This document shows, one piece after another, positions 40 through 57,125 of a stretch of DNA of 64,000 nucleotides. The position numbers were made by a program, and so were the translations under genes. Under the pieces are notes generated by a model that was not told the origin of the DNA, searched no databases, and worked only from the letters and a program-made list of their open reading frames with translations. Source of the DNA: Mycobacteriales bacterium. Lineage in GTDB: Bacteria; Actinomycetota; Actinomycetes; Mycobacteriales; CADCTP01. How positions within the stretch are numbered: the stretch's first letter is position 1; every line of letters begins with the position of its first letter. Location of the stretch: positions 801-64,800 of the forward strand of contig JBBWZH010000059.1 of assembly GCA_039648995.1 (NCBI GenBank), written 5' to 3'.

Positions 40-3000
40 GTGTACTTCTTTCTTAGCTACGCGCGCAGCGGCGACGACCTGCTGGTCAAGCAATTCTTTC
101 AGGGCCTCAGTGCCGAACTCCGCCGGCGTACGGGTGTGGCGGCAGACGAGGCGGTGGGTTTTCTCGACACGGGAATCGGTATCGGCATCCGTTGGTCGAG
201 CGCGCTGCAGCAGGCCCTGTCATCCTGTCAGGTGTTCTTGCCACTCTACTCGGCGCGCTATTTCAAGCGGGTCTACTGCCGGCGGGAGTGGGCATTCTTC
301 GCCGAGCGGTTGCGGCTGGAGGCGGAGCGCACAGGTGTGCAGCCGGGGTCGATTATTCCGGTCACCTGGGTGCCGATGTCGGACAGACCGCCGGACGCGG
401 CCGCGGCGATCAACCACCACGACGAGACGTTCGGCACCGAGTACGCCAATCGCGGGCTGTACAGCATGCTCCGGGTCCAGCGGCTCCAGGACGACTATCA
501 CGAGTTCCTCGTGGCGCTGGCAACGAAGATTATCAACGTGGCGCGACTGCACCCGCTGCCCGCCCTCGACCCGGCGACCGCCCGCGCCGTCGAGGCGTTC
601 TCGGAGCACGCCGAGCCCTGGCCGCTGCCGGCCGACGCGCCGGACCCGGCGGCCGATGTGGCAGGCGTGGAACCGACCGGGCGGCCGCCGGCCGTCAACG
701 CGGACGGCAGCCCACGGGCGGTCCCGGCCGCGCCGTCGGTGTGGCGGGTGCCGACCAGGACAGCCGCGTTCACCGGGCGGGATGGAACCCTCGAACGGCT
801 GCACGCGGGCCTCGCCGCCGGCACGACGGTCGTGCTGCAGCGGGCCTTGTTCGGCCTCGGCGGGGTGGGCAAGACCCAGCTCGCGATCGAGTACGCCCAC
901 CGATACGCCGCTGACTACGACCTGGTGTGGTGGGTGCCGGCGGAGCAGCCGGCGTTGATCCGGTCCACGCTGGCCGAACTCGCGCCGCAGTTGGCGGTCG
1001 CATCCGGCGCGACGGTGGCCGGGACAGCGGAGGCGGTGCTCGACGTGCTGCGCCGTGGCCGGCCGTTCGGCCGCTGGCTGCTGATCTTCGACAACGCGGA
1101 TGAGCCGCGCGACCTCGCCCCCTACCTCCCGCACGGCGCCGGCCACGTGCTGGTGACCTCGCGCAACCAGCAGTGGGCGGCGCAGTTCGAGCATATCGAG
1201 GTCGACGTGTTCAGTCGCGCGGAGAGCGTCGCGCTGCTGACCCGGCAGTGCCGCGGCCTCGACCCGGCCGACGCGGACCGGATCGCCGCCGCGCTGGGCG
1301 ACCTGCCGCTCGCGGTCAGCCAGGCCGGCGCCTGGCTGGACGCCTCCGGGATGTCGGTGGAGGTCTACCTCAAGCTGTTGCGGACAGAGGTCACACAGCT
1401 GCTGAACGAGGGCAGCCCGCCGGACTATCCGATGTCGGCCGCGGCGACGTGGCTGCTGTCGGTCGGGCGACTGCGGCAGCAGGCCGCCTCGGCCGTGCGG
1501 TTGCTGGAGCTGTGCGCGTTCTTCGCGCCGGAGCCGATCACGTTGTCGTTGCTGTACAGCGACGAGGTCGCGCGCCGGCTCGACCCGGCGGCCGCGCCGG
1601 CGCAGAGCTCGCTGCTGATCGGCCGGCTGGTCCGCGACATCGGCCGGTACGCGCTCGCCCGGGTCGACTACCGGCAGGCCACGTTCCAGGTGCACCGGCT
1701 GGTCCAAGCGGTGCTGCGGGACCAGCTGACCCCGCAACAGCAGGCTGATCGGCGGCACGACGTGCACGAGGTGTTGGCCCGGGCGAATCCCGGCAATCCG
1801 GACGCACCGCAGAACTGGGACCGGTACGCCGAACTCTTCGCGCACATCGCCGCCTCCGGGGCCGTCGACTGCGGCGCCGAGGAGGTGCGCGGGTTGATCG
1901 TGGACGAGGTGCGGTATCTGCGGCGGCGCGGGGATTTCCGCAGCAGCCAGCAGATGGCCGAGCAGGCGCTGCCGCGCTGGCGCGAGCGGTTCGGCGAGGA
2001 CGACTCGTGGACGCTTCGACTCGGCTTCGACCTGGCCAACTCGATGCGCGCGCTGGGCTCCTACCAGGCCGCCCGGACGCTGGATGCCGAGATCCTGGCA
2101 CGGATGCGGCGCACGCTCGGCGACAGCCACATCTACACGCTGATGACGTCCAGCAGCCTGGCCGCCGATCTGCGGTCGCTCGGCTACTACAGGCAGGCGC
2201 AGGAGATGGACGAGGACACGCTGGCCCGGCTCCGCACGGAACTCGGCCCCGACCACACGCGGACGCTGATGGTCGCCAACAACGTCGCCGAGTCGTTGCT
2301 GCTTGCCGGCCAGCCGAGCGCGGCCCGCGCGTTGCACCGGGAGACGCTGACGCGGAGCCAGCGGGTCCGCGGCGCCGACCACCCGTCCACTCTGTTCGTG
2401 GCCAACAACCTGGCCCGCGACCTCCGCGGGGAGGGCCGCGTGCCGGAGTCGGTCGCCGTCCAGCGGGACACCCTCGCCAGGTACCAGCGGGTGCTCGGGG
2501 AGGGGCACGCGTCGACGCTGTTGGCCGCCACGAACCTGGCTGTCTCGCTGCGGCGGCTGGGCGAGCTCGCCGAGGCCCGCGAGCTGAACGAGGAGGCGGC
2601 CCGCCGCTACCGGACGCTGCTCGGCGAGGACCACCCAGACGTGCTGAGCTGCCGGATCAACCTCGCCTGCGATCTGTTCGCGGGTGGTGACCTGGAGGCC
2701 GCGCTGGGCCTCGTTGAGGAACTGTTCGGCCGGTACCGGCGGGTGCTCGGCGAGGGGCATCCGTCCAGCCTCGCCTGCGCCAACAACCTGGCCGTACTGC
2801 TGCGGGCGAACGGTGACCGGGACGCCCGGAGGGTCGCGGAGCGGGCGCTGGCCGGCCTGGCGCAGGCGCTCGGCGAGGAGCACCCGTACACGCTCGGTTG
2901 CGCGCTGAACCTGGCGAACACCTTGTCCGACGACGGGCAGCACCCGCTCGCCCGGGAGATCGACGAGCAGACCTACCGGCGCTACCTGCGTACGCTCGGC

Positions 3001-5929: not shown

Positions 5930-7393
5930 GTGGCCCTACTCGAACGCGGTGTCTGGGAAGGCAAGCTCTACTCGGGCGGTTGGGTCGCCGGGTCGGCCGG
6001 GGAGTACCCGGCGGTGGAGCCGGCCACCGGCGCCGAGCTCGGCCGGGTCGGTGCCGCGTCACCGGCGGACGTGCACAAGGCGGCCGAATCGGCCGCGCAG
6101 GCGCAGCCGGAGTGGGCCGCGCTGACCTACGACCAGCGGGCCGCGGTGCTGCGCAGGGCCGGCCAGCTGTTCATCGACCACGAGGACGAGATCCACGACT
6201 GGTTGATCCGGGAGTCCGGCGCGATCCGCCCGTTCGCCCAGTTCCAGACCCGGGTGGTCGGCGCCGAGGAGTGCTGGGAGGCGGCCGGGCTCGCCAGCCA
6301 GCCGTACGGGGAGCTGCTGCGGTCCAACCAGCAGCGGCTGTCGTTCGCGCGGCGGCTGCCGGTCGGCGTGGTCGGCGTGATCTCGCCGTTCAACGCGCCG
6401 ATCATCCTGGCGATCCGGGCGGTCGCGCCGGCACTGGCGCTGGGCAACGCCGTCGTGCTCAAGCCGGACCCGCGCACCGCGGTCAGTGGTGGCGTGGTGT
6501 TCGCCCGCATCTTCGAAGAGGCCGGCCTGCCCGAGGGCCTGCTGCACGTGCTGCCCGGCGGGGTCGACGTCGGCGCCGCGATCGTGGACGACCCGCTGAT
6601 CAAGGTGATCGCGTTCACCGGCTCGACCAGGGCCGGCCGCGCCGTGGCCGCCGCCGCGGCGCAGCGGCTCAAGCGGGTGCACCTGGAACTCGGCGGCAAC
6701 TCGGCGCTGATCGTGCTGGACGACGTGGACGTGGAGAAGGCCGTCTCGGTCGGCGCGTTCGGGTCGTTCAACCACGCCGGGCAGATCTGCATGGCCGCGA
6801 GCCGGCACATCGTCGCCGCCGGCATCGCCGCCGACTACGCGGCCGCGATGGCCGAGCACGCGGGGCACCTGCCGGTGGGCGACCCGGCCGGCGACAACGT
6901 GGCGATCGGCCCGGTGATCGACGCCAAGCAGCGCGACAACATCCACCGCATCGTCACCGGCAGCGTCGACGCGGGCGCCCGGCTCACCGCCGGCGGCACG
7001 TACGAGGGGCTGTTCTACCGGCCGACGGTGCTGGCCGACGTGCCGGTGACCGCGCCCGCCTATGCCGAGGAGATCTTCGGCCCGGTCGCCCCGATCGTCG
7101 CGTTCCGCGACCTGGACGAGGCGGTGCGGCTGGCCGCCGGCACCGAGTACGGCCTGTCGCTGGGCATCCTGACCCGGGACGTGATGAAGGGCCTCGCGCT
7201 GGCCGAGCGCATCCCGAGCGGGCTGGTGCACATCAACGACCAGACCGTGAACGACGAGGCGGTGATCCCGTTCGGCGGGGTGGGCGATTCCGGCACCGGC
7301 GCCCGGCACGGCGGCGCGGCCGCCAACCTGGACGCGTTCACCGACACCCAGTGGGTCACCGTCCGCGGCGAGCTGCCCCCGTACCCGTTCTGA
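5930..7393 (+). CDS. NAD(P)-dependent aldehyde dehydrogenase
   Basis: GTG at 5930, 9 nt after GAGGAG. FTGSTRAG, ELGGNSA and catalytic-Cys block GQICMAASR are present. Divergent from the SDR/LDH pair. Confidence 0.9.
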   Translation: MALLERGVWEGKLYSGGWVAGSAGEYPAVEPATGAELGRVGAASPADVHKAAESAAQAQPEWAALTYDQRAAVLRRAGQLFIDHEDEIHDWLIRESGAIRPFAQFQTRVVGAEECWEAAGLASQPYGELLRSNQQRLSFARRLPVGVVGVISPFNAPIILAIRAVAPALALGNAVVLKPDPRTAVSGGVVFARIFEEAGLPEGLLHVLPGGVDVGAAIVDDPLIKVIAFTGSTRAGRAVAAAAAQRLKRVHLELGGNSALIVLDDVDVEKAVSVGAFGSFNHAGQICMAASRHIVAAGIAADYAAAMAEHAGHLPVGDPAGDNVAIGPVIDAKQRDNIHRIVTGSVDAGARLTAGGTYEGLFYRPTVLADVPVTAPAYAEEIFGPVAPIVAFRDLDEAVRLAAGTEYGLSLGILTRDVMKGLALAERIPSGLVHINDQTVNDEAVIPFGGVGDSGTGARHGGAAANLDAFTDTQWVTVRGELPPYPF

Positions 7394-7432
7394 CCTGGCC
7401 GGACTGTCGTAGGTGCCGATAGCCTCCGGGCC

Positions 7433-7939
7433 GTGGTGGACGGACGCTTCGAGCTTCCCGCCGATATCGACGAGCGGACGCTGCTGATCCGCTTCCTGGA
7501 ATTCCAGCGGGACGCGCTGGTGCGCAAATGCGCCGGCCTCACCGACGAGCAGCTGCGCCGGCATGCGGTGCCGTCGTCCAACCTGACCCTGCTCGGCCTG
7601 GTCCGGCACCTGGCCGGGGTCGAACGCTGGTACTTCCAGGGCGTGGTCGCCGGCGACTTCCCGGGCAGCCTCTACACCGCGACCGACGACCCGGACGAGG
7701 ACTTCAACGACCTCGGCTCCGCCACCGGCGACGCCACCTTCACGACCTGGCAGGCGGAGGTCGAACGGTCCCGCCGCGTCACCGCCGAACGCGCCCTGGC
7801 GGCTGTCGGCACGATCCCGGGCACCGGCCACCGGCTCCCGCTGCGCTGGGTGCTCACCCACATGATCGACGAGTACGCCCGCCACCTCGGCCAGGCCGAC
7901 CTGATCCGCGAGGCCCTCGATGGCGCCGTGGGGGAGTAG
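7433..7939 (+). CDS. DinB-family / DUF664-like protein
   Basis: 168 aa. The pattern LLGLVRHLAGVERWYF ... HMIDEYARHLGQADLIRE is typical of DinB/DUF664 four-helix proteins. It is a paralog of 47962..48486. Confidence 0.75.
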   Translation: MVDGRFELPADIDERTLLIRFLEFQRDALVRKCAGLTDEQLRRHAVPSSNLTLLGLVRHLAGVERWYFQGVVAGDFPGSLYTATDDPDEDFNDLGSATGDATFTTWQAEVERSRRVTAERALAAVGTIPGTGHRLPLRWVLTHMIDEYARHLGQADLIREALDGAVGE

Positions 7940-7943
7940 CGGC

Positions 7944-8339
7944 CTACTCCACCAGCCGAGCCGCGCACCAGGCCGCCGCGGCCCGAGCCAGCCGGCCGTC
8001 CGACGTGACGAGGGTGAGGTCACGCGCCTCGGCCAGGGCGACGTACGCCGCGTCGTAGCCGCTGACCGCTGACCGCAGCTGCCACATCCGGGGGAGCAGC
8101 GGGTCGATCGGGACGTGATCCACCCCCAGCTGCGGTAGCAGGTCGATGGCGCCGCGGGCGCGTTCCTCGCTGATCTTCTTCCCGAGGGCGAGCCCGCGCA
8201 TGACCGAGAACACCTCCACCTTCCAGTGCTCGGGTGCCGCCCACTCGGTGTCGAGCCCCAGCACCGCGCGGGCTCGGTTGCCGCGGTCATCGGCATAGAC
8301 CAGGGCGTTGGCCAACACGGACGCGTCGACAACGATCAC
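7944..8339 (-). CDS. vapC: PIN-domain ribonuclease toxin VapC
   Basis: MIVVDASVL N-terminus with an acidic PIN residue, and LVTSDGRLA near the C-terminus. 131 aa. 4-nt overlap with the upstream antitoxin gene. Confidence 0.85.
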   Translation of the reverse strand: MIVVDASVLANALVYADDRGNRARAVLGLDTEWAAPEHWKVEVFSVMRGLALGKKISEERARGAIDLLPQLGVDHVPIDPLLPRMWQLRSAVSGYDAAYVALAEARDLTLVTSDGRLARAAAAWCAARLVE

Positions 8340-49399: not shown

Positions 49400-50371
49400 A
49401 TGACTGAGGTTGCGACAGTGCTCGGCCCGGTCGGCTCCGCCGAGCTCGGCCAGACCCTGATGCACGAACACGTGTTCGTGCTGACCCCGGACGTGCAGCA
49501 GAACTATCCGGCGGAGTGGGACGAGGAGACCAGGGTGGCCGACGCGGTGCGCCGGCTGACCGCGGTCAGGGACGCCGGCGTGCGCACGATCGTCGACCCG
49601 ACCGTGGTCGGCCTCGGCCGCTACATCCCGCGCATCCAGCGGATCAACGAGCAGGTCGACATCAACATCGTCGTCGCGACCGGCGTCTACACCTACGGCG
49701 ACGCCCCGTTCTACTTCCGGTTCCGCGGGCCGGCGGTGGCCGAGATGCTGCCGGAGCCGATGGTGGACATGTTCGTCCGCGATATCTCCGAGGGCATCGC
49801 CGGCACCGGCGTCCGCGCCGCGTTCCTCAAGTGCGCGGTGGACGCGCCCGGGCTGACCGCAGACGGCGAGCGCATCCTGCGCGCGGTCGCCGCCGCACAC
49901 CGCCGCACCGGCGTGCCGATCACCGTGCACACCCACCCCGGGACGAAACGCGGGCTCGACGTCAAGCGGGTGCTGGACGACGAGGGCGTCGACCCGCGCC
50001 GGGTGGTGCTCGGGCACAGCGGTGACACGACCGACGCCGACCACCTCAGCGAGCTGGCCGAGGCCGGCTTCTACCTCGGCATGGACCGGTTCGGCATCGA
50101 CCTGGAGCTGCCGTTCGCCGACCGGGTCGGCATCGTCGTCGAGCTGTGCCGGCGCGGCTACGCCGACCGGCTCGTGCTCTCCCAGGACGCCTCCTGCTAC
50201 ATCGACTGGATCGACCCGGCGCTGATCGCCGCCATGCCCAACTGGCACTACCTGCACGTCCACACCGACGTGCTGCCGGCGCTGCGCGGCGCCGGCGTCA
50301 CCGAGGAGCAGATCCAGCAGATGCTGGTGGACAACCCGCGCCGCTACTTCGAGACCCGGGACGCGCCGTGA
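49400..50371 (+). CDS. phosphotriesterase-family (amidohydrolase fold) protein
   Basis: GQTLMHEHVF (HxH metal site), ITVHT and VLGHSGD blocks. 323 aa. Confidence 0.85.
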   Translation: MTEVATVLGPVGSAELGQTLMHEHVFVLTPDVQQNYPAEWDEETRVADAVRRLTAVRDAGVRTIVDPTVVGLGRYIPRIQRINEQVDINIVVATGVYTYGDAPFYFRFRGPAVAEMLPEPMVDMFVRDISEGIAGTGVRAAFLKCAVDAPGLTADGERILRAVAAAHRRTGVPITVHTHPGTKRGLDVKRVLDDEGVDPRRVVLGHSGDTTDADHLSELAEAGFYLGMDRFGIDLELPFADRVGIVVELCRRGYADRLVLSQDASCYIDWIDPALIAAMPNWHYLHVHTDVLPALRGAGVTEEQIQQMLVDNPRRYFETRDAP

Positions 50372-51867
50372 CCGAGCTGCACCCGTTCGACGAGGCCGGC
50401 GTCGAGCGGGACGGCGCCGCGGTGAAGCGGTACGCCCGCCTGCCGGCGTCCGTGGTGGAGATGCTGCGGGTCAGCGTCGACCGCGACCCGGACGGCGAGG
50501 CCGTGGTCGAGCTGGACGGCCCGCGGGTCAGCTACCGGCAGCTCTGGGACGACGCGGCGCGGGTGGCCGGCGGGCTGCGGTCGGCCGGCGTGGGTCCGGG
50601 CGACCGGGTGGCGATCCGCTACGGCAACGGGCTGGCGTGGGTGCACGCGTTCCTCGGCACGCTGATGGCCGGTGCGGCGGCGGTGCCGGTGAACACGCGG
50701 CTGGCCCGGCCCGAGGTCGAGTACGTGATCAGCGACAGCGGGGCGAGGCTCACGCTGGGACCGGACGGCCCGGTCCCGGCCGGCGCGCCGTACGTGACCG
50801 AACACCTGACCCGCCACGACCCGGCCGCGATCTTCTACACCTCCGGCACCACCGGCTTCCCCAAGGGCGCGGTGACCAGCCACGAGAACTTCCTCACCAA
50901 CGCCGAGAACGCGCTGCGGGTGGCCGGGCTGCCGGCGCACGACCCGACGATCCGCAACCTGGTCTCGGTGCCGCTGTTCCACGTCACCGGCTGCAACAGC
51001 CAGCTGCTGCCCACCCTGCAGGGCGGCGGCGCGACCGTGGTGATGCCGGCGTTCGACGTCCAGCGGTTCCTGCGCGCGATCGTCGAGGAGCGGATCCGCG
51101 TGGTCACCTCGGTGCCGGCCATCTACTGGTACGCGCTGAGCCGGCCGGACCTCGCCGACCACGACCTCACCGGCGTGGGCTGGGCCAGCTACGGCGGGGC
51201 GCCGATCGCGCCGTCGCTGGTCCGCCGGATCAAGCAGGGCTTCCCGAACGCCAGGGTCGGCAACGGTTTCGGGCTGACCGAGACCTCGTCGATCTCCAGC
51301 TACCTGCCGGACGAGTGGGCCTACACGCACACCGAGTCGGTAGGTTTCGCCGCGCCCACCGTCGACCTCGCGGTGGCCGACCCGGACGCCGGCGGGGTGG
51401 GCGAGCTGCTGATCCGCGGCGGCAACGTGGTGGACGGCTACTGGGCCAAGCCGGCCGAGACCGCTGAGGCGTTCCGGGACGGCTGGCTGCACAGCGGCGA
51501 CCTGGCCCGCATCGACGCCGAGGGCCGGGTCTACGTGCTCGACCGGATCAAGGACATGATCAACCGCGGCGGCGAGAACGTGTACTCGGTGGAGGTGGAG
51601 AACGTACTGGCCGGCGCTCCCGGCGTCTTCGAGGTCGCGGTGATCGCCGTGCCGGACCCGATGATGGGGGAGAAGGTCGGCGCGGTCCTGGTGCCCACCC
51701 CCGGCCAGCCGCTGGACGTGGACGCCGTCCGCGGCTACGCCGCGGAGCGCCTGGCCGACTTCAAGGTGCCGCAGTTCGTGCACGTCCGGCAGGAGCCGCT
51801 GCCCCGCAACCCGGGCGGCAAGGTGCTCAAGTCGGCGCTGCGCAAACAGGTGAACTGGGAGAATTGA
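50368..51867 (+). CDS. AMP-binding acyl-CoA synthetase / ligase
   Basis: GTGA overlap with the upstream stop. Motifs YTSGTTGFPKGAV, GYGLTE-like NGFGLTETS, GWLHSGDLA and the C-terminal PRNPGGKVLK. Confidence 0.9.
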   Translation: MTELHPFDEAGVERDGAAVKRYARLPASVVEMLRVSVDRDPDGEAVVELDGPRVSYRQLWDDAARVAGGLRSAGVGPGDRVAIRYGNGLAWVHAFLGTLMAGAAAVPVNTRLARPEVEYVISDSGARLTLGPDGPVPAGAPYVTEHLTRHDPAAIFYTSGTTGFPKGAVTSHENFLTNAENALRVAGLPAHDPTIRNLVSVPLFHVTGCNSQLLPTLQGGGATVVMPAFDVQRFLRAIVEERIRVVTSVPAIYWYALSRPDLADHDLTGVGWASYGGAPIAPSLVRRIKQGFPNARVGNGFGLTETSSISSYLPDEWAYTHTESVGFAAPTVDLAVADPDAGGVGELLIRGGNVVDGYWAKPAETAEAFRDGWLHSGDLARIDAEGRVYVLDRIKDMINRGGENVYSVEVENVLAGAPGVFEVAVIAVPDPMMGEKVGAVLVPTPGQPLDVDAVRGYAAERLADFKVPQFVHVRQEPLPRNPGGKVLKSALRKQVNWEN

Positions 51868-51950
51868 CGCCCATCCCGGACCTACCGCGGCAGGGCCGGC
51901 CGCCGGCGGGGTCGCGGTTGGCGCCGGCGGCCGGCGGGAAAGGAGTCCGC

Positions 51951-52319
51951 ATGCTGGATGAGGCTGAGGTATTCGGCAGCTTCGCGGTGACGGACATCCG
52001 CCGGGCCAAGGAGTTCTACGGCGGGACGCTCGGGCTGCGGGTGTCGGACGCCCGGCTGGGCCAGTTACGGCTGCATGTCGGCACCGGTCGCGGCTACCTG
52101 CTCTACCCGAAGCCCGACCACACCCCGGCCACGTTCACCGTGCTCAACTTCATCGTGGACGACATCGACGAGGCGGTCGGCCGGCTGGTCGAGCGCGGCG
52201 TCCGGTTCGAGCACTACGACCACCCGAAGACCGACGCCGACGGCATCGACCGGGCCGAGCTGGTCGCCTGGTTCACCGACCCGGACGGCAACATCCTCTC
52301 GGTCGTCCAGGAGCGTTGA
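51951..52319 (+). CDS. VOC/glyoxalase-family protein
   Basis: ATG at 51951 after GGAAAGGAG. FYGGTLGLRV ... WFTDPDGNILSV. Confidence 0.8.
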   Translation: MLDEAEVFGSFAVTDIRRAKEFYGGTLGLRVSDARLGQLRLHVGTGRGYLLYPKPDHTPATFTVLNFIVDDIDEAVGRLVERGVRFEHYDHPKTDADGIDRAELVAWFTDPDGNILSVVQER

Positions 52320-52519
52320 GCCCGCCGTACCTAACCTGGCGGCGTGGCGTGGCTGCCGCGGTACCGCACAGAACCGCGAGGTTGGACGGCGTAGACAGCG
52401 CGTCCGTCCACAGCCAGGGGTGTTGCCGGTGTCGGGCCGTTGGACGGCGTTGGTCTGTCCACTGTGGATGGTCGAATTGGCGTGGTGCGGCGAGCGACAG
52501 GCTTGGTGTGATCGAACGT

Positions 52520-54046
52520 ATGTTCGATCCGGCGGGGGTGTCTGACGCTGCACTGGTCGACGCCATCGCGGCGTGGGACCGGGTGGTGTCGTGGGCGCAG
52601 GCCGCGCAGTTGGCCGCGATCGCGGAACTGGCGCGGCGGCGGCCGGCCCAGCCGGGGCAGCCCAGTGACGGGACCGGGGTGAGTGAGTTCGCCGTCGACG
52701 AGGTGGCCGCGGCGCTGCGGCTGTCGCGCCCGGCCGCCGGTGCCCGGCTCCAGGTCGCGGTCGAGGTGGCCACGCGGCTGCCGGCGACCGGTGCGGCGCT
52801 ACGCCGCGGGGAGATCGACTTCGCCAGGGCCCGAGCCGTGGTCGAGGCGGTGACGCCGCTGGCCGACCCGGCGGCGGCGGCCGTGGAGGCGCGGGTGCTA
52901 CCCCGCGCGGGCAGCCAGACGGTCGGCCAGCTCCGGGCCAGCCTCGCCCGCGCGGTACCAGCCGCCGACCCGGCCGCCGCCGAGGTCCGGCACGCCCGCG
53001 CGGTCGCCGACCGTCGGGTCGCGCTGACCCCGCTCGCCGACGGCGTGGCCGAACTCTGGGCACTGCTGCCCGCCGACGCCGCCACCGCCGTCTACACCGC
53101 AATCGACACCCACGCCCGCAGCGGTCCCGCCGACCACCGCACCATGGACGCCCGCCGCGCCGACGCCCTCACCCACCTCATCACCGCCGCCCACACCGAC
53201 ACGACGACCGCCGCCCACACCACGACCGTGGCCGGCGCGGCGACCCCGAGCCGCACCCGCACCCGCACCGCCACCGGCGGTGTGGCCAGCGCCGGGACCG
53301 TGGCCGGCGCCGGGACCGTGGCCCACAGCACGACCGTGGCCCACACCACGACCGTGGCCGGCGCCGGGACCGTGGCCGGCGCCGTAGCCAGCAGCGGCGC
53401 CCTGGCCGGCGCCGCGACCACCGGCACCGGGAAGCTGACCGGCGCCCGCACGACGACCGACACCGCGGCCAGCACCGCCGCCCCGACCGGCGCGGCGACC
53501 AGCACCCACACCGCGACCGCGACCGCACCGGGCACCGTCACTCGCGGCCGTCGGCCCGGTAGCGGTCCGCTCGTGCATGTCACCGTCGCGGCGTCGACAC
53601 TGCTCGGCCTCGACGACGAACCCGCCGACCTGACCGGCTACGGGCCCATCCCCGCCTCCATGGCACGCCGCATCGCCGCCGACCCCACCGGCACCTGGCG
53701 ACGCATCCTCACCGACCCGGCCTCAGGCACCGTCCTGGACGTCGGACGCACCACCTACCGCCCACCACCAGCCATCGCCAGACACGTCACCACCCGCGAC
53801 CAAACCTGCCGGTTTCCCACCTGCCGACAACCCGCCCACCGCTGCGACCTCGACCACATCCGCCCCTACCCCACCGGGCCTACCGCCGTGAACAACTTGA
53901 CCACGCTCTGCCGTCATCATCACCGGCTCAAACACCACGGCACCTGGAAAGTGACCCCCATCGGTAACGGCAACCTCACCTGGACCGCCCCGACCGGACA
54001 CAGGTACACCACCCAGCCGGCGGGTGGTTCGGGTCGAAGTAGCTAG
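52520..54046 (+). CDS. DUF222 + HNH endonuclease domain protein (13E12-repeat-like family)
   Basis: ATG at 52520. The N-terminal DUF222-like region has AQLAAIAELARRR...RGEIDFARARAV. A Thr/Ala/Gly repeat insert follows. The HNH block is CRFPTCRQPAHRCDLDHIRPY...NLTTLCRHHHRLKH. Confidence 0.85.
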   Translation: MFDPAGVSDAALVDAIAAWDRVVSWAQAAQLAAIAELARRRPAQPGQPSDGTGVSEFAVDEVAAALRLSRPAAGARLQVAVEVATRLPATGAALRRGEIDFARARAVVEAVTPLADPAAAAVEARVLPRAGSQTVGQLRASLARAVPAADPAAAEVRHARAVADRRVALTPLADGVAELWALLPADAATAVYTAIDTHARSGPADHRTMDARRADALTHLITAAHTDTTTAAHTTTVAGAATPSRTRTRTATGGVASAGTVAGAGTVAHSTTVAHTTTVAGAGTVAGAVASSGALAGAATTGTGKLTGARTTTDTAASTAAPTGAATSTHTATATAPGTVTRGRRPGSGPLVHVTVAASTLLGLDDEPADLTGYGPIPASMARRIAADPTGTWRRILTDPASGTVLDVGRTTYRPPPAIARHVTTRDQTCRFPTCRQPAHRCDLDHIRPYPTGPTAVNNLTTLCRHHHRLKHHGTWKVTPIGNGNLTWTAPTGHRYTTQPAGGSGRSS

Positions 54047-54426
54047 GGCGTGCCGCCCTGGCCGCCGCCGGCAGCCGCGACCAGCCGCCGGACCAGCGCC
54101 CGGACCGACGCCAGGTCGAGCTCTACCGGCTTCCCGCCGAGCTGCACGCCGTCGCCCTGGAAGCCGTCGAACTCGATCTTCGCGCCGGAGACCAGGTGCA
54201 GCGCGAAGCGGTGCCGCAGGGTGTAGCCGCTGACCTGGTCGGTCACCTTGACCACGGTGCGCCAGGGGATGATGCGTGCGGTCGCCTTGCCGAAGAAGTA
54301 CTCCCGGGCCCAGGCCAGGTACTCGGTGCCGAAGACCACGACCACGTGCCGCAGCGTGTCCTTGTGGTGGCAGCACCGGCAGGCCGCGATCAGCTGGCCG
54401 GCCCCGGTGATCTGCTCCAGCAGCAA
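54043..54426 (-). CDS. hypothetical protein (possibly PH-like domain) or 3' fragment of a disrupted gene
   Basis: The open frame has good G/C third-position bias, but only a TTG start and no RBS. It lies directly downstream of the caspase remnant in a different frame. Confidence 0.35.
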   Translation of the reverse strand: MLLEQITGAGQLIAACRCCHHKDTLRHVVVVFGTEYLAWAREYFFGKATARIIPWRTVVKVTDQVSGYTLRHRFALHLVSGAKIEFDGFQGDGVQLGGKPVELDLASVRALVRRLVAAAGGGQGGTP

Positions 54427-54669
54427 CTTCCGCTGAGGCTGTAGAGCGTGTCGGCCGCGTCGAGCCGCGCGGCCAGCAGCTCCCGCTGCGCCGGTCCATC
54501 AGGGTTTCCACGGCGAAGCCGCCGACCGCCGGGTCGCTCAGCACCTCGGCCAGCACGCGCGCGTCGTGCGCGGGCGCGCCGAGCCGGGTCAGCGCCGGGT
54601 CGGCGTACTCGCTGCTGGCGATGACCAGCCGTACCGGCCCCCGGCCGGCGTGGCCGGCGCCGTCGTCAC
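54427..54669 (-). pseudogene. caspase-like (peptidase C14) N-terminal remnant, frameshifted and truncated
   Basis: The minus strand reads VRLVIASSEYADPALTRLGAPAHDARVLAEVLSDPAVGGFAVETLMD, then (after a frame change) PAQRELLAARLDAADTLYSLSG. The candidate GTG start at 54669 is out of frame unless the C5 run at 54638-54642 is altered. No catalytic His or Cys blocks are present. Confidence 0.65.
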
Positions 54670-54681
54670 GTCGGCCGCTGG

Positions 54682-55059
54682 CTACGCGGCGTCGGGCGGG
54701 CCGCCGTGCCGGGCGATCCAGATGTCCATCAACGCGCGCTGGTCGGCGACGCTGACGCCGGTCACCTCCAGCACGTCGCCGTCGATCTCGATCTTCACAC
54801 TGCGCGCCTGCCGGAGCGCGACCCACCGGCCCACCGCCGCGACCACCGCCCGCACCCGCTGCGCCGACCGGACGAACTCGACGACCAGCCTGCCGGCCGC
54901 GATCACGTCCAGCGCCGTCGCTCCGGCCGGCGGCACCCCCGCACTGGCCAGCTCGACCCGCTCCACATCGGTCGCCAACAGCTCGTCCCGAAGAGCCGCG
55001 ACCAGCAAGATCAGCTCGGCCGCGTCGGCGTCCGGCGGCGCCTGCACCGCGACGCTCAT
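54682..55059 (-). CDS. EACC1-like small protein (effector-associated constant component; tentative)
   Basis: ATG at 55059, 125 aa. The pattern AELILLVAALRDELL...VELASAGVPPAGATALDVI...VGRWVALRQARSVKIEIDGDVLEVTGVSVADQRALMDIWI matches my recollection of the EACC1 family. It is adjacent to a caspase remnant. Confidence 0.5.
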   Translation of the reverse strand: MSVAVQAPPDADAAELILLVAALRDELLATDVERVELASAGVPPAGATALDVIAAGRLVVEFVRSAQRVRAVVAAVGRWVALRQARSVKIEIDGDVLEVTGVSVADQRALMDIWIARHGGPPDAA

Positions 55060-55151
55060 CCGCGCCACCGTTTCGCCCACCCCAACCCCCGTCCAACCCG
55101 CCACCGAGCGACAGGGTAGCGGCCAGATCGACCCGGACCGGCAGCAATACC

Positions 55152-55961
55152 TCAGGTGCCGAGCAGGTCGGCGATGTCGGTCACCGTGATGCCGTCCATC
55201 AGCCGGCGGGCGAGGTCGGCGACCGGCAGCGGCACGCCGACGTCGGCGGCCATCCGGCTGGCGTTGTCGATGTCCTTGACGTACCAGGTGAGTCGCATCT
55301 GCTCCAGTTCGCGCAGGGTGCGGCTGTCGGTGGGCCCGTGCACGAGCGCGGCGCGGGCGCGGGCGGGGGAGAGGCCGAGCTCCCGGCCGAGCCGCAGGGC
55401 CTCGACGATCGCGACGATCTGGGCCCAGTGGATCAGGTTGTTCACGGTCTTGCCGACCTGGCCCTGGCCCAGCTCGCCGAGGTGCCGCACGCCGGCGCAG
55501 AAGGCGCCGAACACCGGCCGGGCCCGATCCAGCGCCGCGGCCGACCCGCCGACCAGCAGGTTCACCGTGCCGTCGACGGCCGCACGGACACCGCCGGTGA
55601 GCGCCGCGTCCAGCACGTCCACCTGCCGCGGCGCCGCCTCGGCGGCCAGCGTCGCGCACGTCTGCGGGCGCACCGAGCTGCACACCGCCAGCACCGCCCC
55701 GGGGCGCAACCCGGCCAGCAGGCCGGCCGGGCCGGTCACGACGGCCAGCACGTCCTCGTCGGTGGGCACGGTCAGCAGCACCACGTCCGCCACCGGGGCC
55801 AGGGCCGCCGGCGACGGGCACGCGGTGGCCCCGAGCGCGGTGGCCGCGGCGACCGCGGCCGGGTCCAGGTCCACGCACCAGGTCGGGAAGCCGGCGGCGC
55901 GGACATGCCGCAGGATCGGGCCGCCCATCGCGCCGAGCCCGATCACGCCGACACCGGTCAT
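55152..55961 (-). CDS. NAD(P)-dependent oxidoreductase, 3-hydroxyisobutyrate dehydrogenase family
   Basis: VGVIGLGAMGGPI Rossmann motif and GQGQVGKTVNNL block. 269 aa. Confidence 0.85.
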   Translation of the reverse strand: MTGVGVIGLGAMGGPILRHVRAAGFPTWCVDLDPAAVAAATALGATACPSPAALAPVADVVLLTVPTDEDVLAVVTGPAGLLAGLRPGAVLAVCSSVRPQTCATLAAEAAPRQVDVLDAALTGGVRAAVDGTVNLLVGGSAAALDRARPVFGAFCAGVRHLGELGQGQVGKTVNNLIHWAQIVAIVEALRLGRELGLSPARARAALVHGPTDSRTLRELEQMRLTWYVKDIDNASRMAADVGVPLPVADLARRLMDGITVTDIADLLGT

Positions 55962-55985
55962 CGCACCCCTCCGTCTATGGTCTAT

Positions 55986-55996
55986 TGGTCATACCA
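55986..55996. promoter_or_regulatory. candidate GntR/FadR-type operator copy 1
   Basis: TGGTCATACCA, preceded by ATGGTCTAT, in an AT-rich patch 25 nt upstream of the start at 55961(-). Confidence 0.55.
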
Positions 55997-56366
55997 CAGG
56001 TAAGGAACGGACTCCAGCAAGCGGTCGCGGCCGGCGACGGAGCCGGCGGCCTGGCGGGACTCCCGTCGAGGCAGGCGGGGCAGGGACCGGGGTTCGGGGG
56101 TTGCCCGGCACAGGGTCAACGGGGCGGTAACCCGCCCGGTGATGTCCACGGCGGTGCCGGCAAGGCACTCCCGAGCAAGTGCCTGACCTGGCAGGGCGGC
56201 CTGACTCCCGCCGACCACGACAAGCTGGTGATGGTCCGATGTTCCTCCCGGCCACCGAGACCGATCCCGGCAACCGGGCCGAGCTGTGGTGGCTCGGGTG
56301 GCTCACGCGTGAACGGGCGGCCCCGGCGCCGGGGACTGCGCGGCCGGCGGGTAGCCCGGCCCGGCC

Positions 56367-57125
56367 TCAGTGCTTGGCGAGCCGGGCGGCGGTGCGGTCC
56401 AGGTGGCGGCGCATGATGTCGGTCGCCTTGGGGCAGTCGCGGGCCCGGATCGCCGCGACCAGCTCGACGTGCTCGGTGACGCCGATGCCGCCCATCTCCG
56501 GGGCGGCCTCGTGCGCGCGCTCCAGCGACATCAGCAGCGGCCGGCGGAACGTCTGCTGCAGCATCACGATCGCGCGGTTGTGCGTGCACTCGGCCAGCCG
56601 GGTGTGGAACTCGGCCGACATCTCCATCGTGTACGTGCCCGCGTCCCGGGCGGCGATCGCCTTGTCGCACAGCTCCTGCAGCGCGGCCAGGTCTTCGTCG
56701 GTGGCCCGCTCGCAGACCAGCGGGACCACGCCCAGCTCGATGATCTTCCGGGTCTCGGTGACCTCGGCCGCCGTCGTCGGCGACAGCGTCATCAGGTCGA
56801 TGATGCCCTCGCGGATGTGCGAGCCGGACGGCGCGGTGACGAACGCGCCGCCGCGGGCGCCGACCCGGATCTCGATCAGACCGTTGGCCTCCAGGATGCG
56901 CAGCGCCTCGCGCACGGTCACCCGGCTCACACCGAACCGCTCGCACAGGTCGCGCTCCGAGGGCAGCCGGTCACCGGGCGTCAGCCGGCCTTCCCGGATC
57001 AGCACCCTGATCTGGTCGACGATGTCCTCCGACATCCGGCCCATCGTGACCGGGTTGAACAGGTCGGCCGGCAAGTCGGTGCGGACCTTGGCCACGACGT
57101 CTCCCTCAGCGAACAAGCACCCCAC
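56367..57125 (-). CDS. GntR-family (FadR/FCD subfamily) transcriptional regulator
   Basis: HTH LPSERDLCERFGVSRVTVREALRILEANGLI plus an all-helical FCD-like C-terminal domain. The exact start is uncertain (57125, 57098, or the ATG for MGRMSE). Confidence 0.88.
   Translation of the reverse strand: MGCLFAEGDVVAKVRTDLPADLFNPVTMGRMSEDIVDQIRVLIREGRLTPGDRLPSERDLCERFGVSRVTVREALRILEANGLIEIRVGARGGAFVTAPSGSHIREGIIDLMTLSPTTAAEVTETRKIIELGVVPLVCERATDEDLAALQELCDKAIAARDAGTYTMEMSAEFHTRLAECTHNRAIVMLQQTFRRPLLMSLERAHEAAPEMGGIGVTEHVELVAAIRARDCPKATDIMRRHLDRTAARLAKH

Follow-up and report, generated by a model that had tools for sequence, protein, structure and literature searches.

In the 64,000-nucleotide (nt) window analysed here, positions 801 to 64,800 of contig JBBWZH010000059.1 from a Mycobacteriales bacterium, the minus strand carries an intact EACC1 gene directly followed by a broken caspase gene. 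The locus is very probably a degraded copy of the two-gene EACC1-caspase conflict or defence system described as 'System 4' by Kaur et al. 2020, with the caspase gone, EACC1 intact and the module disarmed. An earlier note, made from the letters of this stretch alone, had proposed an EACC1 gene beside a decayed EACC1-type caspase. That core reading held, and the surrounding neighbourhood proved to be otherwise intact. Six-frame translation of 53900-55200 recovered on the minus strand all the features quoted in that note, among them the 125-amino-acid (aa) open reading frame (ORF) 54682..55059 with its five quoted motifs. The window is actinobacterial DNA of 75% G+C, and the G+C content at third codon positions (GC3) amounts to 0.94-0.97 in each of the minus-strand frames concerned (the EACC1 ORF, the caspase-like frame, a third frame and ORF 54043..54426), which argues that the minus strand is coding throughout, now or until recently.

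This reading is supported by comparison with an intact ortholog. Scanning genomes with the EACC1 alignment gave 13 loci, the closest of which, L004, lies on OY970235.1, the 10-Mb chromosome of a metagenome-assembled genome (MAG) of an uncultured actinomycete; a metagenome scan yielded two contigs and no others, both from the species of L004. Alignment with related loci had been suggested in the earlier note as a way to find an intact EACC1-caspase pair and to define the deletion, and L004 provides that pair. Its EACC1 (5980..6378, 132 aa) is 82% identical to that of the window, and its caspase ORF (6392..8050, 552 aa) begins 13 nt further on. This protein starts with MPPGGRYGLVIASSEYADPALARLGAP, contains ...LLLLYFSGHG... 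and ...LDCCYSGAF..., and is composed of an N-terminal caspase, a HEAT-like segment, a repeat linker and a C-terminal bacterial-PH-like domain, the presumed sensor. P0038, a near-identical database copy of it, scores 176 bits against NF047832 ('caspase, EACC1-associated type'; positions 4-208) and matches Peptidase_C14 with E 1.5e-14. SGHG and DCCYSG are present in L004, L017 and L018, and the caspase 5' end is intact in the more distant L019 (EACC1 75% identical). Across the survey, a full caspase domain stands directly downstream of 20 of 20 EACC1 copies (18 loci, L001-L018, about 13 of them distinct). The synteny blocks shared by the window and L004 are listed in the table. EACC1, the glyoxalase-like gene, the phosphotriesterase, TetR and DinB each give a single in-frame match to L004, and only the caspase is broken, being split by tblastn into residues 9-54 and 433-546 in different frames.

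The EACC1 stop at 54682 is followed after 12 nt by the co-directional GTG of the caspase remnant. This GTG at 54669 and its CGACGTG context are conserved in the DNA alignment to L004, and at the caspase start L004 and L019 read V(PP/ST)GGRYGLVIASSEY. The earlier note had stated that the GTG is out of frame with the caspase-like stretch, and translation confirms this: the stretch, VRLVIASSEYADPALTRLGAPAHDARVLAEVLSDPAVGGFAVETLMD, occurs in the second frame at 54634..54494, where the caspase-like string ...LVIASSEYADPALTRLGAPAHDARVLAEVLSDPAVGGFAVETLMD is read. Its reading VRLVIA is right as far as LVIA is concerned, while 'VR' is out-of-frame read-through, the orthologs having GGRYG-LVIASSEY. Likewise, the plus-strand C5 run at 54638-54642 that it had held responsible for the frameshift does exist, but a frameshift inside this C5/G5 run was rejected, as the run has the same length in intact L004; the lost base is a C at 54628/29. 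The result is a -1 frameshift after VTTAPATPAGGRYG, and the start frame terminates after 26 codons. The stub that follows ends ahead of the catalytic His position. It is 87% identical to residues 9-54 of the L004 caspase (tblastn, E 4e-18) and matches NF047832 with E 1.1e-7 at 31.6 bits, covering only positions 4-63 of the 211-position profile and falling well short of the 140-bit cut-off for the full domain. Together with the 35 homologs of the small upstream protein, these values bear out the view that the similarity is more than chance.

We located the main lesion by a two-piece dynamic-programming alignment against L004 in which one long gap was allowed. The best junction lies at window 54487-54490 (L004 6554|7621, 1,066 nt lost), and a junction at 54472 (1,071 nt lost) is nearly equal (874 vs 872). 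The deletion of about 1.07 kb is out of frame and removes ortholog residues ~55-410, that is, SGHG, DCCYSG, the remaining caspase fold, the HEAT-like segment and the tandem-repeat linker; the catalytic His and Cys are lost under either placement. Tblastn found no window counterpart of L004 caspase residues 55-432, and neither SGHG nor DCCYSG occurs in any frame of 54043..54669. Both the translation and the ortholog comparison thus agree with the earlier observation that no His or Cys catalytic block follows. Restoration of a functional caspase by homopolymer correction was rejected, because the deletion removes the active site regardless. The right breakpoint adjoins 24/72-nt and 21-nt tandem repeats in L004, which suggests a repeat-promoted deletion. 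In L004 itself, the caspase linker at 7355-7631 is built from 24/72-nt tandem repeats (AEPV-rich) plus a 21-nt repeat.

The frame changes described in the earlier note are real, but the second of them, placed near 54488-54495, probably corresponds to the junction of the large deletion, and a further 1-nt loss lies at 54427-54440. The continuation PAQRELLAARLDAADTLYSLSG was found in the third frame as quoted. Its interpretation is where we depart from the note, which took 'DTLYSLSG' for the strand ahead of the catalytic histidine and let the similarity end exactly at the SxHG histidine. On that anatomy the caspase would continue after a small indel at ~54490 as PAQRELLAARLDAADTLYSLSG (~...DDLLLLYFSG), and the large deletion would start at SG|HG, at ~54427-54436. 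The N-side of L004, EVQRAVARFFKDRRRDDLLLLYFSGHG, does resemble the window segment, and GCAGCGGG and CTCTAC are common to both at the DNA level. We nevertheless consider this arrangement unlikely: junctions at 54427-54436 score 821-837 against 872-874 for 54472-54490, and alignment with eight relatives matches the segment to their 'FE.GLY' helix, just ahead of the bacterial-PH-like domain. By its alignment, AQRELLAARLDAADTLY is probably this helix, though not certainly, because the N-side of L004 (VQRAVARFFKD..LLLLY) happens to resemble the segment as well.

The next frame, the open 127-codon ORF 54043..54426, had been taken for unrelated sequence, a claim that proved mistaken. An exhaustive HMMER search with the 127-aa ORF matched residues 428-544 of P0038 with E 3e-28, and the same search found 21 other proteins with the domain at their C-terminus, often in tandem, among them caspase, CHAT and zinc-ribbon proteins. 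The blastn match to L004 at this position supports the same homology, as does a nine-sequence domain alignment, in which the window copy keeps all seven family-invariant residues. A word-indexed search with the joined conceptual translation retrieved nothing beyond the ORF of the window itself, and the exhaustive HMMER search was needed for the caspase link. The domain gave no direct match to bPH_3 (PF14470, cut-off 23 bits); among its relatives, P0039 (30.9 bits) and P0041 (25.6 bits) exceed the cut-off but P0040 and P0044 fall short of it, so that on profile scores it is best called bPH_3-like. From the match to P0038 and the bPH_3 matches of the relatives, we infer that the ORF is the bacterial-PH-like domain at the C-terminus of this same caspase gene. 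The lesion is accordingly an internal deletion of ~1.07 kb and not a truncation with foreign sequence behind it.

Alternatively, the remnant might have become a new gene in its own right, with the 127-aa ORF starting at TTG 54426 and acting as a stand-alone bacterial-PH-like protein, possibly together with EACC1. The frame is open with a GC3 of 0.97, the seven invariant residues are in place, and a 119-aa protein with the same start position, P0040, is called beside EACC1 on another contig. Yet the first helix of the domain is missing from the ORF, the native stop is gone, its ratio of nonsynonymous to synonymous divergence (dN/dS) from the ortholog is 0.98, and promoter or ribosome-binding-site evidence was looked for and none was found. 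Chance open frames are moreover expected at 75% G+C, a 474-aa out-of-frame ORF covers the same DNA, and the common ORF start is merely the first TTG after a stop. We therefore hold a new gene to be very improbable and keep to the reading of a caspase remnant. The 474-aa frame, stop-free on the minus strand from 53723 to 55147, runs through EACC1 (out of frame), the caspase stub, the junction and the antisense of the inserted HNH gene. Like the plus-strand ORFs, it is a typical out-of-frame open frame of GC-rich DNA, which an automatic annotator could miscall. A sigma-70 promoter scan found nothing, and the single terminator-like site falls inside the C-terminal ORF.

Table 1. Features of the EACC1-caspase locus in the window and blocks shared with L004.
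Feature	Window position	Strand	Details and basis
EACC1 gene, intact	54682..55080	-	probably 132 aa from GTG 55080; ATG 55059 gives 125 aa; homologs, context
Caspase pseudogene, 5' end	54628..54669	-	GTG start 54669 and 14 codons, VTTAPATPAGGRYG; in-frame 18-nt insertion relative to L004
Lesion 1, one C absent	54628..54629	-	orthologs (L004, L019) TACGGCCTGGTC, window TACGGCTGGTC (GGCCTG to GGCTG)
Caspase N-terminal stub	54491..54628	-	46 codons (LVIASSEY...ETLMDR), residues 9-54 of the 552-aa ortholog
Lesion 2, internal deletion junction	54472..54490	-	~1,066-1,071 nt lost; two-piece dynamic-programming alignment against L004
Third-frame segment AQRELLAARLDAADTLY	54441..54491	-	best match the 'FE.GLY' helix before the bacterial-PH-like domain (L004 EHRAVLSAGIERFAKLDGTLY)
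Lesion 3, one base absent between TLY and LLLE	54427..54440	-	47 nt, against 48 nt in L004; -1 frameshift
C-terminal bacterial-PH-like domain of the caspase gene	54062..54426	-	homology to P0038 and L004; frame open
Lesion 4, replaced 3' end	54043..54061	-	native last codons and stop gone; frame runs GQGGTP* into the inserted element
DUF222/HNH endonuclease gene, inserted	52325..54061 (ORF 52316..54046, likely start ATG 52520)	+	PF02720; synteny breakpoints
Synteny (blastn), EACC1 and caspase 5' end	55164-54490		L004 5880-6554, 83% identity
Synteny (blastn), caspase C-terminal domain	54425-54062		L004 7698-8046, 68% identity
Synteny (blastn), glyoxalase-like gene	52324-51907		L004 8055-8472, 90% identity
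Synteny (blastn), phosphotriesterase, TetR, DinB	50364-48002		L004 8559-10991, 85% identity

Two of the lesions are single-base deletions, a common type of long-read assembly error, and the deleted region borders tandem repeats in the ortholog, so one might ask whether the true genome carries an intact EACC1-caspase pair behind an assembly or sequencing artefact. An independent Logan assembly of run SRR27584663 speaks strongly against this. Its 1,480-nt sequence L020 aligns without a gap to window 55307..53828 and differs from it by four substitutions; every lesion and also the HNH junction fall within this span, and lesion 1 is in the same state. Given this gap-free agreement, the structure belongs to the organism or population and not to one assembly. 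Since the neighbouring genes are all in frame and the 1.07-kb deletion by itself removes the active site, an artefact is barely credible.

The small upstream gene was identified through its relatives. A homology search returned 35 of them besides the gene itself (E 1e-8 to 1e-51), which have in common the invariant block RSVK.EIDGDVLEVTG, and the window protein retains all invariant and nearly invariant residues of the family alignment. Among them, P0005, named EACC1 by NCBI, matches with E 2.7e-26 (53% identity over 94% of the query) and itself reaches 25.5 bits against PF19953 (gathering score 23.6 bits) over profile positions 4-101 of 107; PF19953 is matched by 18 of the 36 aligned family members. 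Two results weigh against the assignment. Neither the 125-aa nor the 132-aa version matched Pfam PF19953 or NCBIfam even at E<=10, and the closest relatives, P0002-P0004, likewise had no PF19953 or NCBIfam EACC1 match. The profile search through which the earlier note would have verified EACC1 was thus formally negative, while transitive homology via P0005 and the gene context support membership. Judged by these two lines and not by a direct hidden Markov model (HMM) match, the small gene is a divergent but genuine EACC1. The downstream neighbour of P0002, 535 aa long, resembles the caspase orthologs in length only. With regard to the start, the L004 EACC1 aligns in tblastn from 55080 with 86% identity, and the orthologs and the family consensus start seven codons upstream of the 125-aa version; GTG 55080 is hence the likely start. 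The GC3 of the gene is 0.94. None of the three pieces (EACC1, stub and C-terminal ORF) matched a PADLOC model, and Rfam gave nothing within 51500-56500.

An AlphaFold2 model of the window EACC1 built from the 36-sequence alignment (mean pLDDT, the predicted local distance difference test score, 74.5) predicts an alpha+beta fold of strand-helix-strand, a loop, a helix at 66-82, two strands and a helix, with the central loop (~residues 38-58) poorly defined at low confidence. The segment ALDVIAAGRLVV contains a patch of small residues. In their description of EACC1, Kaur et al. name a conserved hydrophobic helix at the centre that includes small residues and has alpha+beta elements on either side (PMC7159879). 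A PDB fold search with the model gave nothing significant, the top match (E 0.03) being among generic ferredoxin-like folds.

Both the layout of the intact locus and its expected mechanism have counterparts in published systems. The EACC1-caspase pair was described by Kaur, Burroughs, Iyer & Aravind 2020 in eLife (PMC7159879) as a conflict system made up of two genes, occurring in multicellular actinobacteria and varying in its C-terminal region. The present locus shares with this System 4 the actinobacterial host, the small stand-alone EACC1 on the 5' side and the caspase-first gene with variable C-terminus on the 3' side, as well as gene order, strand and the ~12-nt spacing, and intact L004 fits the description exactly. 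It differs in that the window caspase is a pseudogene without catalytic dyad, that the variable region of this lineage consists of a HEAT-like segment, a repeat linker and a bPH_3-like domain, and that the small protein is too divergent for a direct PF19953 match. More recently, Evans et al. 2025 (bioRxiv 10.1101/2025.11.14.688446) reported that a Ktedonobacter racemifer caspase cleaves EACC1, with Asp49 as the predicted cleavage site. Only the C-terminal EACC1 fragment is toxic, and cleaved EACC1 permeabilises liposomes; the N-terminal part is autoinhibitory, and the C-terminal part oligomerises into membrane pores and kills the cell. The earlier note had cast the caspase as effector and EACC1 as constant component. 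According to Evans et al., the roles are reversed, EACC1 being the latent pore-former and the caspase the sensor and activator.

By homology to this published pair, which serves as a model for the intact ancestor, the presumed sensor, the bacterial-PH-like domain, would have perceived a signal and activated the caspase, which would then have cleaved EACC1 and released a C-terminal fragment able to form membrane pores and kill the cell. The predicted window fold likewise has an N-terminal part that packs on two C-terminal strands, and its central loop is flexible. The sensor of the K. racemifer EACC1-KrAvs12 pair is an Avs-type STAND NTPase, whereas here it would be a bacterial-PH-like domain, and the two are likened by mechanism, not by sequence; moreover, the protease is destroyed in the window and cognate activation is impossible. 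The logic is also that of bacterial gasdermin-protease operons, in which a pore-former stays latent until a caspase-like protease encoded next to it licenses it (an analogy drawn by Evans et al.). In contrast to this shared logic, there is no sequence or fold relationship to the gasdermins, the PDB fold search having given no significant match.

In the lineage of the window, the caspase gene has suffered a 1-nt loss 14 codons after its start, the out-of-frame deletion of ~1.07 kb, a second 1-nt loss and the replacement of its stop by the DUF222/HNH insertion. With the locus unable to yield a protease, EACC1 has lost its activation by the cognate partner, which leaves the module disarmed. Without cleavage the pro-toxin should do no harm, and it would have been left behind beside its dead trigger, presumably inert by now and merely not yet decayed. 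Its persistence needs no special explanation, since the uncleaved form is expected to be harmless and a 399-nt gene is a small mutational target.

We compared the divergence of the pieces from L004 by Nei-Gojobori dN/dS. EACC1 gave 0.40, the caspase stub 0.35 (about 0.3-0.4), the phosphotriesterase 0.29 and the C-terminal domain 0.98, the high rate of the last probably being due to the variability that is usual at the sensor end of such proteins (PMC7159879). With L019 as third taxon, the EACC1 dN/dS is ~0.47 on the window branch against 0.26 on the L004 branch, and amino-acid relative-rate tests on EACC1 gave no significant difference (unique changes 9 vs 6 and 8 vs 5, p about 0.6). These results also contain the points that tell against an inert leftover. 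EACC1 shows no decay, its conserved residues being kept and its rate not accelerated, and the data do not separate an inert leftover from a gene still in use; the stub has purifying-type divergence and the C-terminal domain its invariant residues, so that either the inactivation is recent or parts are still constrained. Because the stub still looks constrained and the C-terminal invariants are kept, we take the inactivation to be recent relative to the split from L004.

It is conceivable that EACC1 remains in service, kept by selection and cleaved in trans by a paralogous EACC1-type caspase elsewhere, the module having been re-wired. Every conserved residue is indeed kept with no rate acceleration, related genomes hold several EACC1-caspase pairs, for example two within 4 kb in L008 and L009, and what the family conserves is the caspase domain, its C-termini being variable (PMC7159879). 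We regard such re-wiring as improbable, given that no second caspase or EACC1 was found within the 64-kb window, that adjacent cognate pairing is universal among the surveyed loci, that the constraint tests are of low power and that a 399-nt gene is simply a small target. In equal measure a long shot is the broader proposal that loss of the protease with EACC1 undamaged is a recurrent evolutionary route (cf. JGI 3300041966), EACC1 being kept via cleavage in trans or a protease-independent role, possibly with involvement of the bacterial-PH-like ORF. The disarmed module with a harmless remnant remains our preferred account.

Several further loci of the survey deserve mention. On a 6,110-nt contig of JGI sample 3300041966, P0004 (730..1131, EACC1 65% identical) is followed by ORFs 1132..1665 and 2289..2648, that is, by a 177-aa ORF, a 620-nt gap and the 119-aa bacterial-PH-like ORF P0040, where an uninterrupted gene of ~505 codons would be expected. 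Judged from this ORF layout, the contig may hold a second, independent broken caspase beside EACC1. L008 (402-1433, 4643-5707) and L009 (6001-7008, 10121-11115), both on Pseudonocardiaceae MAG contigs, carry two EACC1-caspase pairs each within ~4 kb. In L016 (6001-6129), the EACC1 match comprises residues 73-115 only and stands beside a full caspase domain, which may be the converse case of a truncated EACC1 or a divergent N-terminus. The C-terminal domain, with the pattern 'FE.GLY...(M)CRC...PW...G.G' (P0038-P0059), often occurs in two or three tandem copies after CHAT or caspase proteases and with zinc-ribbon proteins. It has only borderline bPH_3 matches and seems to represent a subfamily of PH-like sensors, as yet unmodelled, that belongs to protease-based conflict systems.

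The HNH gene lies between the convergent glyoxalase-like and caspase genes, where L004, L017 and L018 have 8 nt. Homology to L004 ends at 54062, the inserted segment measures ~1.7 kb, and its arrival replaced the caspase stop codon. Its product matches DUF222 (PF02720) with 87.7 bits (cut-off 24.4); HNH (PF01844) scores 16.6 bits, below the 21.4 cut-off, with the CxxC...HH..H motif visible. The ends of the insertion showed neither a target-site duplication nor a terminal inverted repeat. Thr/Ala-rich tandem repeats lie inside the gene at 53160-53526. Within the same 5 kb there is a second presence/absence difference, an acyl-CoA synthetase-like gene at 50365..51906 (ORF 50146..51867, plus strand) between the phosphotriesterase and glyoxalase-like genes, which is absent in L004 (86 nt there).

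Taken by itself, the caspase gene is an ordinary pseudogene within an already described system and raises no new question. The main practical value of the finding lies in annotation. Neither ORF 54043..54426 nor the 474-aa out-of-frame ORF should be entered as a gene of its own, the small EACC1 clade represented here escapes the current Pfam and NCBIfam models, and the bPH_3-like 'FENGLY...CRC' domain, which recurs at the C-termini of caspase and CHAT proteases, is essentially unmodelled. The pattern of a retained EACC1 fits the published harmlessness of its uncleaved form. The locus may serve as a clear-cut case from nature of the loss of a protease-licensed suicide module, in which the activator would be destroyed first and the uncleaved pro-toxin would stay.

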